Positions 52,067-64,000 of a stretch of 64,000 bases of DNA are shown here, one piece after another. The position numbers and the translations under genes were made by a program. The DNA lies in NCBI GenBank assembly GCA_029262855.1, contig JAJCYP010000076.1:4784-68783 (forward strand). The letters run 5' to 3'. Source of the DNA: Bacteroidota bacterium (GTDB taxonomy: Bacteria > Bacteroidota > Rhodothermia > Rhodothermales > UBA10348). The notes beneath the pieces are model-generated. The model did no database searches. It saw only the letters and a list, made by a program, of their open reading frames with translations, and had not been told where the DNA came from. Position 1 is the first letter of the stretch, and the number at the start of each line of letters is the position of its first letter.

Positions 52067-52918
52067 TCAGAGACCAAAGAAATCGAACAGGAACGTTCGA
52101 TTGTCCGGTGACTCGGTGTACCAAGCATGAACCCCATCGGTCATCTGATAGAGATGCACGCGTGTGCCCGAGTCGCACTGATTCCATTCGATGGCCGCGA
52201 GCGTCGCTTTGCCGGACCGGTAGGTAGTCTGCACCGCGGGTTCGCAGGAACGCTTGTCGGCCCAGAATTCGGCGGTGTCTTCGGCCGACAGCAGGCTGAA
52301 CGCCCCGTTGTTCGTCCCGGCCCACGGAAGAATGGCGTCCCGCCTGCCGTGCAGCGTCAATACGGAGACCGGGTTGGCGGCCCCGCACATCTGCGAAAGA
52401 GGTACCGACATGGGCGCCGAGACAGCCGCAACCCGGCTGATCCGATCACCCATGGCGCAGGCAAGCCGATACGCGAATAGTCCGCCCTGCGAGTAACCGA
52501 GTGCAAAGGTGCGTTCCGGTGACACGCTATAGCGGGCGGACACCGAGTCGATGAGCGCCTCTACGAATCCGAGGTCATTGATCTGGAGGCGGTCGGCGAT
52601 GTTGCAGTTGCATCCCTCGGCCCAATTGCCCTTTGCCGCCGTCGGATAGGCGATGATCAGGTCATCCGTAGCCCGTTCGTCGAGCCCCGCACCTGCCTGA
52701 AAGCTCCGCCCGGAATCGCCCGAACCGTGGAGCGCGATGAGCAAATGGACCGCATCGCCTTCCGCAATGCCGTCCGGGATGTAGAGGCGGACATCCCTGA
52801 GTGTGTCATCTACCGCGATGAAGATGTCCTCGGTTGAGCCTGCGTCACCTGAAACGAGATCACAGGCCGCTGTGGCGAGCATGCAGGTCAACAAGAGTGG
52901 GATGGATAGCACCTTCAT
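52067..52918 (-). CDS. PHB-depolymerase-family esterase (alpha/beta hydrolase) lipoprotein
   Basis: Lipobox LATAAC. Nucleophile elbow GYSQGG. HG oxyanion hole LIALHGSG. Confidence 0.7.
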   Translation of the reverse strand: MKVLSIPLLLTCMLATAACDLVSGDAGSTEDIFIAVDDTLRDVRLYIPDGIAEGDAVHLLIALHGSGDSGRSFQAGAGLDERATDDLIIAYPTAAKGNWAEGCNCNIADRLQINDLGFVEALIDSVSARYSVSPERTFALGYSQGGLFAYRLACAMGDRISRVAAVSAPMSVPLSQMCGAANPVSVLTLHGRRDAILPWAGTNNGAFSLLSAEDTAEFWADKRSCEPAVQTTYRSGKATLAAIEWNQCDSGTRVHLYQMTDGVHAWYTESPDNRTFLFDFFGL

Positions 52919-53002: not shown

Positions 53003-53494
53003 TTACGCAGCCTCTTTGGTTCGACCTCCGTCCAGCTTACGCACAGGTCTGGGTACAAACTCTGCCGGAATGCGAGGGCGTTCGCACAGCTTGCCTTCCT
53101 TGTCGACTGCCGCCCAGATGGTGGGAAGCGCGTAGATGTAGCGCCCAATGCCCCACTGGACCGCGGCTCTTCGCATGGCCGCACTCAGCCCTCCTTTCAC
53201 AGGCTGAATGTCCGTGTTCTCGGCTCCGTCCCACTTGGTTATCCATTCCGCGGGCGCTCCGTCCCGCAGAACGCGAACCGACAGGCCACACACCACGCCG
53301 CCGGCGGGTCCGGGCGCGTACTCATTTCGCCAGTTTTCTGGTCCGCATACCTGATCCAGTCGGTCCATGATAGCTCGATTGGACAGGAACGGAGCCGCCC
53401 TGGCCTTGCTCCGATCGGCGGAGAGCCCGATCGGCTTCCATTTCAGGTCGGCTTCTTCGAAGAAATCGGCGAGTCGGCGCAAATCGTAGGACAT
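53003..53494 (-). CDS. Rad52/Rad22-family single-strand annealing protein (phage Sak-like)
   Basis: Conserved stretch AIMDRLDQVCGPENW...AMRRAAVQWGIGRYIY characteristic of bacterial Rad52-family proteins. Confidence 0.55.
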   Translation of the reverse strand: MSYDLRRLADFFEEADLKWKPIGLSADRSKARAAPFLSNRAIMDRLDQVCGPENWRNEYAPGPAGGVVCGLSVRVLRDGAPAEWITKWDGAENTDIQPVKGGLSAAMRRAAVQWGIGRYIYALPTIWAAVDKEGKLCERPRIPAEFVPRPVRKLDGGRTKEAA

Positions 53495-53535
53495 GGTCTT
53501 CTCTGTTGCTGGGTTTCCCCAAGGATACAGAGGGG

Positions 53536-53557
53536 GTGTGACAGCAAATTGTCACAC
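53536..53557. promoter_or_regulatory. perfect inverted repeat GTGTGACA-N6-TGTCACAC upstream of the Rad52-like gene
   Basis: Read directly, 42 nt upstream of the ATG at 53494. Confidence 0.45.
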
Positions 53558-53658: not shown

Positions 53659-54279
53659 ATGGACTCCGTCTATTTCATCAGCCTGATCGTAGGTGGATTC
53701 TTCGTCCTCCTGTCAATCTTCGGCGGCGCAGATCACGAAGGTGACTTTGACGCGGATGTGGATGTGGATGTGGACGTCGATTTCGATGCAGACCACGATT
53801 TTTCCGTCGAAGGCGATCTGGGTGTGGGCGCCCATGCCGGATTCGATTCGGACGTAGGGGCGGGCGTCGGGTTTGTGGACCTGCTTTCGGTCCGCGCCCT
53901 GTTTCTTTTCGCCGCGTTCTTCGGACTGACAGGCACACTCCTTGAACTGAACGGCACCGCCGAGCCCTTTGTCGCGATTCAAGCCGTGCTGATGGGGCTG
54001 TTTGCCGGGCTCGGGGGTAACTATGTGATCAAGCGGTTTGCCTACAAGGAGGTCTCCTCCTCGATCGGTGAGCGGGATTACAAGGGTCGGACCGCCAAGG
54101 TTGTGCTCCCGTTTGAAGGAGACGACCGCGGCACCATTACCCTGAATGTCAAAGGACAGCGGCTGCAGCTGACGGCCCGGTCGCTGGATCTGGAAAGCCT
54201 GGAAGCCTTCGCCCCAGGAGACGAAGTCGTCGTTATCCGCATGGACGGACGCGTCGCAGAAGTGGTCAAGCCCAATTAG
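53659..54279 (+). CDS. YqiJ/NfeD-like membrane protein with an acidic (D-V/D-F)n repeat and a C-terminal OB-fold
   Basis: TM, then DFDADVDVDVDVDFDADHDF (encoded by a GATGTG-type tandem repeat), a second TM, and an NfeD-like C-terminal beta domain. TATAAT lies about 36 nt upstream. Confidence 0.55.
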   Translation: MDSVYFISLIVGGFFVLLSIFGGADHEGDFDADVDVDVDVDFDADHDFSVEGDLGVGAHAGFDSDVGAGVGFVDLLSVRALFLFAAFFGLTGTLLELNGTAEPFVAIQAVLMGLFAGLGGNYVIKRFAYKEVSSSIGERDYKGRTAKVVLPFEGDDRGTITLNVKGQRLQLTARSLDLESLEAFAPGDEVVVIRMDGRVAEVVKPN

Positions 54280-60416: not shown

Positions 60417-61028
60417 TCAGGAAGCCTGACGCCGGTCAGCTGGCCGACTGACGGCCTCCTCAAACTCGCGCGTCCACTCAGCGGGGCGATTGATCCGGCG
60501 TCGGCGTACCGTCGCTGCCAACCTACCATCCCACCCTTCTGCGGACAGCGTACTCCGACCGGAGTGAACCCGCCGGACCGTCGAAAGCGCTGCCAGTCGA
60601 GCCGACTTGCCGGCCTTGAACAGGGACGGCTCGGCGGCCTCCAAGAGGCTGACAACGGCCAGGGCATTCTTCTGTGCGTCCAGTCGTGATACGCAGAATA
60701 CGACGTCATACGCTCCGTAGACCAGCAAGACCGCCTCGCGCTCCTTGGCCGACTCGCCAACCAGCACGGCGGCCCTTCTCCCGCCCTTTTCCAGGACGAT
60801 GTCCGCCGATACCGAGCCGATGGGCGTGGCAACGCTCTGCCCAACTCGCATGGCGCAGGACTCGTTCAGCGCCCGGCGAAGCGTATGCACAAGCATTCTC
60901 GGCGAGTCACTCCGAGTGGCTTTGCCCGGAAGCGGCGCCCGCGGCGACTGCGGATCCCTTTCGCTCTCGGATGAGCGCCGGCTCCGGCTCAGTTGGTCTA
61001 CGCTTGGATTCACTGTGATTGCCTGCAT
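60417..61028 (-). CDS. hypothetical protein, possible PD-(D/E)xK-like nuclease fold
   Basis: ADIVLEKGG...VLVGESAKE resembles a D...E.K nuclease core. This call is weak. Confidence 0.3.
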   Translation of the reverse strand: MQAITVNPSVDQLSRSRRSSESERDPQSPRAPLPGKATRSDSPRMLVHTLRRALNESCAMRVGQSVATPIGSVSADIVLEKGGRRAAVLVGESAKEREAVLLVYGAYDVVFCVSRLDAQKNALAVVSLLEAAEPSLFKAGKSARLAALSTVRRVHSGRSTLSAEGWDGRLAATVRRRRINRPAEWTREFEEAVSRPADRRQAS

Positions 61029-61068
61029 GGCCTTCTCCCTTGGTTACGATACAAGGGTACAAAGGGTT

Positions 61069-61088
61069 ATATGACATCGATATGTCAT
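61069..61088. promoter_or_regulatory. inverted repeat TATGACAT-CGAT-ATGTCATA upstream of the 60417..61028 gene
   Basis: Read directly. It has the same TGACA-N6-TGTCA core as the 53536 palindrome. Confidence 0.4.
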
Positions 61089-61164
61089 ACCCCACACACA
61101 TTAGTCACATGTTTTTTTGTTTTCCGCTCGCGATCCTGGATCGCTACGGACTCCATCGCGCCGA

Positions 61165-61689
61165 TCAGACTCGGTAGCGATAGCTCAGCTTGAGGAAGAA
61201 GCCGTCGTTGAGCCGGGTGAAGTCGTTGAACCGATAGGTCTGCGGCTCCGAGAGATTCGCGGCGTACCCAAGAAAAAGCACCGTCCCGGGAGTCGGTCGA
61301 TAAGAAAACAGCCAGTCGAATTGGAACGAGTTTGTTCGCCGCTCCCCGACCGGACTGTACGTCCCGCTCGACTCGTCCAGCACCACGATGGGGCGATTGG
61401 TTCTTGAATCGTCCCGGAGGGCGTCCCGAAAATTGGAATCATACTGCCCAACCACTCGGACAAAGAGTGACGGTGTCATCTGGTATTCCACCTTCAGCCG
61501 TGGAACGCGATGGATACCAACATTGGACTGGTCCGTCACCCGGACGTCATCACGGCCTCCCACCAGAAAGAGGCTTCCCGAGAACTGTCGCCACCGTGGC
61601 GTGGCGAGCCCGGACCAGAAACCGAGATTGGTCAGTCGGTCGACCCCCACGTAGGGCGTCGGCACGCCCCCCGGGCTCTCGGGCGCCAC
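61165..61689 (-). pseudogene. C-terminal remnant of a second DUF5916-family gene copy (the N-terminal ~560 aa are missing)
   Basis: The C-terminus ...FQFDWLFSYRPTPGTVLFLGYAANL...NDGFFLKLSYRYRV aligns with the C-terminus of the 49772..51985 protein (...RFRYNFREGNDLWLVYNAGLNL...GGRMLLLKYTYTFIR). There is no signal peptide or N-terminal domain, and the gene abuts the upstream gene. Confidence 0.4.
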
Positions 61690-63442: not shown

Positions 63443-64000
63443 GAGTCCCTCAGAATACGGACGATCCGCTCGTGAGGAAATGACTCCGGGAATACCCTGC
63501 CGCTAGTCCAGGCCCTTAAGGCGGATCCACACTGGGGGTCTATGATAAATATGCTGTTCCAGGAGACCGGATAGTCCGAGTACAGCACCCCAGGCAGCCC
63601 CTCGACCTCCGGCCTTTCTGCCCACGACGGCTTCGCCCACCGCGGCGCCGAGCGCAATTTGAGTCATTGACACTCCCCGCGCTGAAGCGCGAGGATTCTT
63701 CCTTCATCTCAAGCCGCCTTGCCAACCGTGGTTGACATCGGTCTTCCGCTCGATCCAGAAGCATGGGGCGATGGACATCGCCCATACGGCGTGTCCCGCC
63801 GCAAGACATTGATGGCCGCATTCACATCACGATCATGCTCGCTGCCGCAGGCAGGGCACGCCCATCTTCGGATGTGGAGGGGCAGTGATCCCGTCCGGTG
63901 GCCACAGTCGGAGCAATCCCGACTCGTGTACTGCGGAGCGACAAGGACCACCTCCTTGCCGTACCACGCGGCCTTGTACTGGAGCATGCGCACGAACTGC
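63443..64000 (-). mobile_element. right end of an IS200/IS605-family element (tnpB 3' end plus about 260 nt expected to carry omega-RNA/RE)
   Basis: TnpB elements carry their guide RNA and subterminal hairpin downstream of or overlapping the tnpB 3' end. Here that is the non-coding stretch 63443-63708. Confidence 0.4.
63709..64000 (-). CDS. tnpB: IS200/IS605-family TnpB (RNA-guided nuclease, OrfB), C-terminal part; N-terminus beyond window edge
   Basis: ...VVLVAPQYTSRDCSDCGH...RRWACPACGSEHDRDVNAAINVLRR is the zinc-finger/RuvC-III end of TnpB. The ORF is open to the window edge. Confidence 0.75.
   Translation of the reverse strand, partial: QFVRMLQYKAAWYGKEVVLVAPQYTSRDCSDCGHRTGSLPLHIRRWACPACGSEHDRDVNAAINVLRRDTPYGRCPSPHASGSSGRPMSTTVGKAA

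Follow-up and report, generated by a model that had tools for sequence, protein, structure and literature searches.

In a window of 64 kb of chromosomal DNA from a member of the Rhodothermales (the whole stretch that was analysed, 64,000 nucleotides, 61% G+C), two genes are preceded by the same palindromic box, and, judging from its conservation across this order, the palindrome is a regulatory site common to two gene families rather than a chance occurrence. One of these families comprises single-strand annealing proteins (SSAPs) of the Rad52/Sak type, and the other is an unannotated group of proteins with a PD-(D/E)xK fold. Based on the architecture of the site and on its linkage to regulator genes in other bacteria, we propose that it is probably recognized by a homodimeric regulator of the wHTH-WYL-WCX type, akin to DriD, PafBC and YafY, and that this regulator would sense ssDNA and control a LexA-independent DNA-damage regulon. 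A preliminary description of this DNA, made from the sequence alone, had suggested a small DNA-repair or recombination regulon under a common dimeric factor, and comparative genomics supports this suggestion well. The type of factor that it had in mind, an SOS-like repressor, is probably the wrong one: no published LexA motif that we checked matches the box, and the features of WYL regulators, especially those of the DriD type, provide a better fit.

The Rad52/Sak-like gene, the 203-aa protein gene and their genomic setting

The first of the two genes (53003..53494, minus strand) codes, from an ATG start, for a protein of 163 aa that was recognized as Rad52-like in the preliminary description. 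The Pfam Rad52_Rad22 profile (PF04098) matches its residues 28-130 with an E-value of 5.5e-12 (46.3 bits, the cutoff being 20.3), phrog_1097 is matched with an E-value of 1.9e-47, and the N-terminal beta-beta-beta-alpha fold of Rad52 is present, so that Pfam, PHROG and fold all agree on a member of the Rad52/Sak family of annealing proteins. Sequence searches of the PDB with this protein and with the 203-aa protein discussed below returned no match for either. The window protein is a short form, which lacks the long C-terminal tail of many orthologs. That tail is of low complexity (alignment A2, P0015-P0117) and has at its end an aromatic-(F/M)-M-P motif, which is conserved, or, in some orthologs, LPF or VPF, endings that recall the C-terminal tip of SSB; the window protein and the orthologs most similar to it have no such tail, and their C-terminal end reads KEAA.

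The Rad52-like gene is flanked by an alpha/beta-hydrolase esterase gene (52067-52918, minus strand) and by a gene for an NfeD/YqiJ-like membrane protein (53659-54279, plus strand). Both neighbors had been named beforehand and are corroborated by domain matches, which on the NfeD side amount to a weak match (E-value 2.8e-4) that is backed by synteny. The gene order DUF5916 outer-membrane protein, 203-aa protein, Band_7 flotillin, NfeD-like protein, (Amt, P-II), Rad52-like protein and esterase recurs in several metagenome-assembled genomes (MAGs). The isolate Rhodocaloribacter litoris, whose genome is complete, keeps the block consisting of Band_7, NfeD-like, P-II, Amt and Rad52-like genes and has the gene for the 203-aa protein approximately 1 Mb from it; a box precedes the Rad52-like gene as well as the 203-aa gene. 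Given this conserved host synteny and the ordinary nature of the neighbors, the Rad52-like gene is not prophage-borne; the synteny across the MAGs and one isolate, together with the housekeeping-type neighbors, rules out a prophage origin of the locus, and the remaining genes of the window likewise serve ordinary cellular functions. The gene is also solitary, as had been noted at the outset: no exonuclease gene adjoins it in the window, and it therefore does not form the SSAP-exonuclease module of phages. The best protein matches for the window come from Rhodothermales MAGs. Chromosomal orthologs of the Rad52-like protein from Rhodothermales show 54-93% identity to it, and at least 193 homologs were recovered from IMG/VR phage contigs, with identities of at most 57%. 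Inheritance of the box itself from a phage is ruled out by 80 IMG/VR loci with Rad52 homologs (1.09 Mb), none of which has a box at that gene. The Rad52-like gene has the look of a phage SSAP gene that was domesticated long ago, and in Rhodothermales it is now fixed in the chromosome.

Two other loci of the window deserve mention in their own right. The 174-aa ORF at 61165-61689 (minus strand) covers no more than the C-terminal end of the DUF5916 outer-membrane protein, which has approximately 780 aa at loci L003 and L131, and this gene appears to have been truncated by a deletion in the window genome. At the window edge, an ORF (63709-63993, minus strand) encodes a TnpB/Cas12f-like TNB zinc-ribbon domain (PF07282, E-value 5.7e-26) and probably belongs to an IS200/IS605-family element running off the end of the window.

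The second boxed gene (60417..61028, minus strand), apparently co-regulated with the first, codes for the 203-aa protein, to which no match was found in Pfam, PHROG or NCBIfam. The protein displays a restriction endonuclease-like alpha-beta-beta-beta-alpha-beta core and, overall, a PD-(D/E)xK fold (Vsr/DUF559-like) with a C-terminal beta-beta-beta-alpha module. Its earlier characterization as nuclease-like therefore stands with respect to the fold but not with respect to the catalytic residues, since the D...(D/E)xK signature is not conserved among 23 aligned members of the family: the first catalytic position is Asp or Glu in most of them, and the Glu of the (D/E)xK element is found in 4 of the 23, with the window protein having a Leu in its place. 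As this Glu is mostly missing, nuclease activity of the subfamily is doubtful, and the 203-aa protein may be a DNA-binding derivative rather than an active nuclease. The family is small, with 33 representatives at 50% clustering of 1.84 billion proteins, and every member with a named source comes from Rhodothermales; a copy with 100% identity to the window protein is present on a contig of 68.8 kb. No homolog occurs in the 80 phage loci encoding Rad52 homologs, and the protein is hence not a co-domesticated phage exonuclease; this absence and the unconserved catalytic motif together eliminate it as the exonuclease partner of a phage SSAP. In one MAG (L129) a second paralog (P0130; L129:10656-11312) is convergent to a gene for a HhH-GPD DNA glycosylase.

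Conservation of the box and geometry of its promoters

Upstream of the Rad52-like gene, box 1 (53536..53557) is a perfect 8+8 palindrome, GTGTGACA-GCAAAT-TGTCACAC, with its core at 53539-53554; 41 nt lie between it and the ATG, and it would occupy approximately positions -42 to -21 of the promoter. A putative -10/-7 element, TATCCT (TATCCTTG; 53522..53527, minus strand), is situated 8 nt downstream of the box. The 22-bp box 2 (61069..61090; ATATGACA-TCGATA-TGTCATAC, core 61072-61087), which lies in the promoter of the gene for the 203-aa protein, includes the palindrome TATGACAT-CGAT-ATGTCATA (61070-61089, 40 nt upstream of the ORF) and is followed, after 9 nt, by the putative -10/-7 element TACCCT (TACCCTTG; 61054..61059, minus strand). 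Both the perfect palindrome ahead of the Rad52-like gene and the recurrence of its TGACA-N6-TGTCA core ahead of a nuclease-like gene had been noticed in the preliminary description and are borne out here. The window of 64 kb has two copies of this core, compared with a mean of 0.05 in dinucleotide shuffles, none of 100 of which reached two occurrences.

Across Rhodothermales-type DNA we observed 26 boxes, which are evenly divided between promoters of Rad52 orthologs (13) and of members of the 203-aa family (13), precede the start codon by 38-59 nt in both families and yield the consensus yTRTGACA-N6-TGTCAYAr. The boxed Rad52 orthologs are those of the window and of loci L001, L002, L003, L004, L006, L008, L133 (R. 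litoris), L134, L135, L338, L339 and L340; the box of L004 has one mismatch, and in L134, L339 and L340 the boxed gene stands among different neighbors. Upstream of the Rad52 orthologs of one Rubricoccaceae MAG and one Peribacteria MAG the box is absent. On the side of the 203-aa family, a box precedes each of the two paralogs of the L129 MAG, and boxes are also found before distant members with approximately 25-30% identity (L004, L338, L339, L341, L342, L343 and L344). A position weight matrix (PWM) matched 308 kb of Rhodothermales DNA 24 times at 14 bits or more, versus 0-3 times in shuffles, and at least 10 of the boxes were found only after this PWM had been built. All of these matches are located before genes of the Rad52 or 203-aa families and none elsewhere; the motif is accordingly enriched in promoters, and only two target families were seen in the loci searched.

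While the flanks have diverged between distant genomes, the sequence of the half-sites stays the same instead of merely covarying, which argues for recognition by a protein rather than for an RNA hairpin. A hairpin or terminator is in fact ruled out by this invariance together with the location of the site upstream of the predicted -10 element. In two promoters of distant 203-aa members (L343:9922-9943 and L344:9922-9943 (R. litoris)) the promoter-proximal half contains TGACA and not TGTCA, suggesting that the middle base of TGxCA is free. Of the 22 sites tabulated, 21 have a TAnnnT hexamer, in many cases TAnnCTTG, that starts 8-9 nt beyond the 22-mer, and none of these boxed promoters has a -35 hexamer. 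We take the TAnnnT hexamer to be a putative -10 element.

Some of these promoters contain further elements. Directly upstream of box 2, the sequence ATATGT-N5/6-ATGTGTGT in gene orientation (61091..61112, minus strand) represents a second conserved element, which is common to the closer 203-aa promoters (window, L001, L003, L129 and L135) and absent from the Rad52 promoters, and which could be an UP-like element or the site of a second factor. At L006:5915-5956 the Rad52 box shows a tandem duplication of its distal half and the adjoining flank, with GTTACAGGGTGACACTGG followed by GTTACAGGGTGACACTAACCTGTCAT. In L002, L003, L008 and L135 a palindromic GAAGCGCTTT/AAGCGCTT element precedes the Rad52 box by approximately 20-60 nt; in the last three of these the divergent neighbor is an ammonium transporter gene, and the element may be part of the regulation of amt rather than of the Rad52-like gene.

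Candidate regulators of the box

A scan of metagenome contigs for TATGACA-N6-TGTCATA followed by TAnnCT recovered at least 120 promoters, mostly from low-GC gut-type bacteria, and among these the largest cluster of downstream genes codes for regulators with the Pfam architecture HTH_11-WYL-WCX. Such a gene directly abuts the box in 47 of the 120 boxed promoters listed, as judged with an HMM built from these same proteins, and this linkage comes mostly from low-GC Firmicutes-like contigs that are phylogenetically far from Rhodothermales. With the same HMM, no such gene was detected at any of the 120 control loci listed, which have the bare palindrome only. Other genes downstream of the boxed metagenome promoters encode GyrI-like/Cass2, DinB-superfamily, radical-SAM and SAP-domain proteins. 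An HMM search for a WYL regulator gene in the window and in approximately 300 kb of Rhodothermales loci returned none. Scanning the collection with the bare 14-nt palindrome was uninformative, with at least 120 random viral matches.

Apart from its bearing on Rhodothermales, the promoter type ...TATGACAyAnnGnTGTCATA-N9/10-TATACT is very widespread in loci L218-L337, mostly low-GC metagenome loci, in which it drives genes for a WYL regulator and for GyrI-like/Cass2, DinB-superfamily, DUF1706, SAP-domain, zinc-ribbon and radical-SAM proteins. These promoters point to a large, apparently uncharacterized WYL regulon in Firmicutes-like bacteria.

We favor a WYL regulator over an SOS repressor because the half-sites, the AT-rich spacer and the position over an absent -35 element match those of DriD-type sites, and because outside Rhodothermales the box adjoins genes for WYL regulators. 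As the targets are an SSAP and a protein with a nuclease fold, they fit a damage response, and the fully palindromic site implies a homodimer. The missing -35 element and the rigid spacing favor activation; based on this promoter architecture, the regulator may well activate its targets instead of repressing them.

The alternative that fares best, though we regard it as unlikely, is a WYL-family repressor acting in the manner of CapW and BrxR, that is, a dimer seated on the core promoter that leaves when ssDNA binds its WYL domain. Such a repressor would agree with the operator proposed in the preliminary description, since the box covers the -35 region, a classic operator position in which a bound dimer can occlude RNA polymerase, and CapW and BrxR do bind palindromes of approximately 20 bp, from which ssDNA releases them (PMC11662680). 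However, a rigid distance between box and -10 element in promoters with no recognizable -35 is typical of activation of the DriD or PafBC type (PMC11804915, PMC13004042), and the published CapW site bears no resemblance to the box (PMC11662680).

We see little chance that the box is instead the operator of LexA or of another S24-peptidase repressor of Rhodothermales, which would place both genes in a classical SOS regulon. Both targets would be plausible SOS genes, a canonical LexA is present in Balneolaeota, the sister phylum (PMC7739468), and LexA motifs, which as a rule are palindromes close to the promoter, differ widely from phylum to phylum (PMC8565304). Nevertheless, the box does not match the reported motifs that were checked, including GGA-N5-TCC as well as CTAA-N5-TTAG of Bacteroidetes (PMC8565304) and TTACACATATTTTWTACATA of Balneolaeota (PMC7739468). 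Furthermore, its fixed phasing with the -10 element and the absence of a -35 element are atypical of LexA operators, and elsewhere it is tied to genes for WYL regulators and not to those for S24 proteins. Searches with tblastn of the window and of all Rhodothermales loci that were fetched detected neither lexA nor recA.

Similarly improbable is a different dimeric regulator that has nothing to do with DNA damage and responds, for instance, to another stress, the resemblance to WYL boxes being convergent: the regulator gene was not found in the approximately 300 kb of Rhodothermales loci searched, in which two target families were seen, and WYL regulators can sense other ligands, such as c-di-GMP in the case of MbpR (PMC11880434), but at least 14 matching positions, the asymmetry of the spacer and the distance to the -10 element are all common to the promoters adjacent to WYL genes, and both targets are proteins of DNA metabolism.

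Under a homodimeric WYL regulator, the reading that we prefer, DNA damage would generate ssDNA, which would switch the regulator and cause both promoters to fire. The most likely route would be a DriD-like recruitment of RNA polymerase to promoters devoid of a -35 element, the alternative being release of a WYL repressor; as ssDNA would act by either activation or derepression, induction by DNA damage is predicted either way. The induced products would be a Rad52/Sak-type protein that anneals ssDNA or binds its ends and a protein with a PD-(D/E)xK fold. Both might act on resected DNA ends in LexA-independent repair, in a manner functionally akin to the damage-induced DdrA of Deinococcus. More tentatively, these elements might add up to a previously undescribed LexA-independent damage response of Rhodothermales, in which a DriD-like WYL activator, turned on by ssDNA, would control, as a conserved core, a domesticated phage Rad52/Sak protein and a lineage-specific, possibly non-catalytic PD-(D/E)xK partner, both of which would constitute a host-owned, RecA-independent pathway of single-strand annealing or end protection that arose in parallel with DdrA/DdrB of Deinococcus.

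To our knowledge, the WYL-controlled damage regulons documented so far are those of Actinobacteria (PafBC), Alphaproteobacteria (DriD) and Moraxellaceae. In the literature that we searched, we found no description of LexA or the SOS response in Rhodothermales or of the DNA-damage response in Rhodothermota. If the proposal is correct, a nearly identical WYL box and promoter geometry would be present in distant phyla, a phage SSAP would have been taken over by the host as a lasting repair gene throughout an order, and a small unannotated PD-(D/E)xK-fold family would gain a testable functional context. With the 22-bp box as a handle, the whole regulon could be mapped and its regulator sought in cultured strains, for instance Rhodocaloribacter litoris.

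Comparison with known systems

DriD, the WYL activator of an SOS-independent damage response in Caulobacter, binds ATACGAC-N7-GTCGTAT, a site with an AT-rich center and with a critical G and C in each GxC, and the DriD regulon includes the endonuclease gene bapE, recA and recJ (PMC10853764). The sites of DriD overlap the place where a -35 element is missing and maintain a constant distance from the -10 element (PMC13004042). The DriD site and the Rhodothermales box are both pseudo-palindromes of approximately 20 bp, their half-sites reading TAyGAC and their center being AT-rich, in which the critical G and C of GxC are kept. Both lie over an absent -35 element at a fixed distance from the -10 element, which in the present case is a predicted one, and both have dispersed targets that include recombination or nuclease genes. 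The apparently free middle base of TGxCA is likewise as expected if only the G and C are read, as by DriD. In the didA promoter (PMC13004042), TGTC begins, by our count, 16 nt before the inferred -10 hexamer, and the same arrangement is seen in the Rad52 promoter of the window, with TGTCACACCCCCTCTG followed by TATCCT. The two systems differ in spacing, as the box has GAC-N8-GTC and is thus 1 bp longer than GAC-N7-GTC of DriD, and in the half-site, which is TATGACA in the box versus TACGACA. They also differ in phylum, Rhodothermota versus Alphaproteobacteria, and in their targets, for which the former has a Rad52-like SSAP together with a new PD-(D/E)xK-fold family and the latter has didA, bapE, recA, recJ and dnaG.

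Among other WYL regulators, MbpR of L. plantarum binds CAATGGTGACA and GAAAGGTGTCA, with the T, G and C of TGxC being critical (PMC11880434). These sites correspond to the spacer and the promoter-proximal half of the box. The promoters controlled by PafBC contain the RecA-NDp motif, tTGTCRgtg-8nt-TAnnnT, which resembles TGTCACAC-8nt-TATCCT of the window. In mycobacteria, PafBC governs an ssDNA-activated, LexA-independent damage regulon, in which it replaces the -35 contact and its motif lies at about -26, immediately upstream of the -10 element (PMC11804915). PafBC is a heterodimer that recognizes a non-palindromic half-motif and binds only with RNA polymerase (PMC10853764, PMC11804915), whereas the Rhodothermales site is a full palindrome.

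With regard to the Rad52-like protein, DdrA of Deinococcus radiodurans protects 3' ends and does not anneal, illustrating that membership in the family is no guarantee of annealing activity, and it is regulated by DdrO/IrrE at the 17-bp palindromic RDRM, a motif of a different type from the box (PMC6300522). Like the Rhodothermales gene, DdrA represents a chromosomal, non-prophage member of the Rad52 family that stands alone without an exonuclease and has a palindromic promoter motif. DdrA is damage-induced, as is proposed for the Rhodothermales gene, and the two differ in that the former is controlled through the RDRM by DdrO/IrrE and the latter has a WYL-type box and a product much closer to the Sak/Rad52-like SSAPs of phages. 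Those SSAPs (phrog_1097; Sak of the lactococcal phage ul36 and of the staphylococcal phage 80alpha) have the same fold and belong to the same family, but the Rhodothermales gene is embedded in host synteny with a host-type box and has no phage neighbors. The closest precedents are DdrA, in functional terms, for the Rad52-like gene and the DriD regulon for its regulation.
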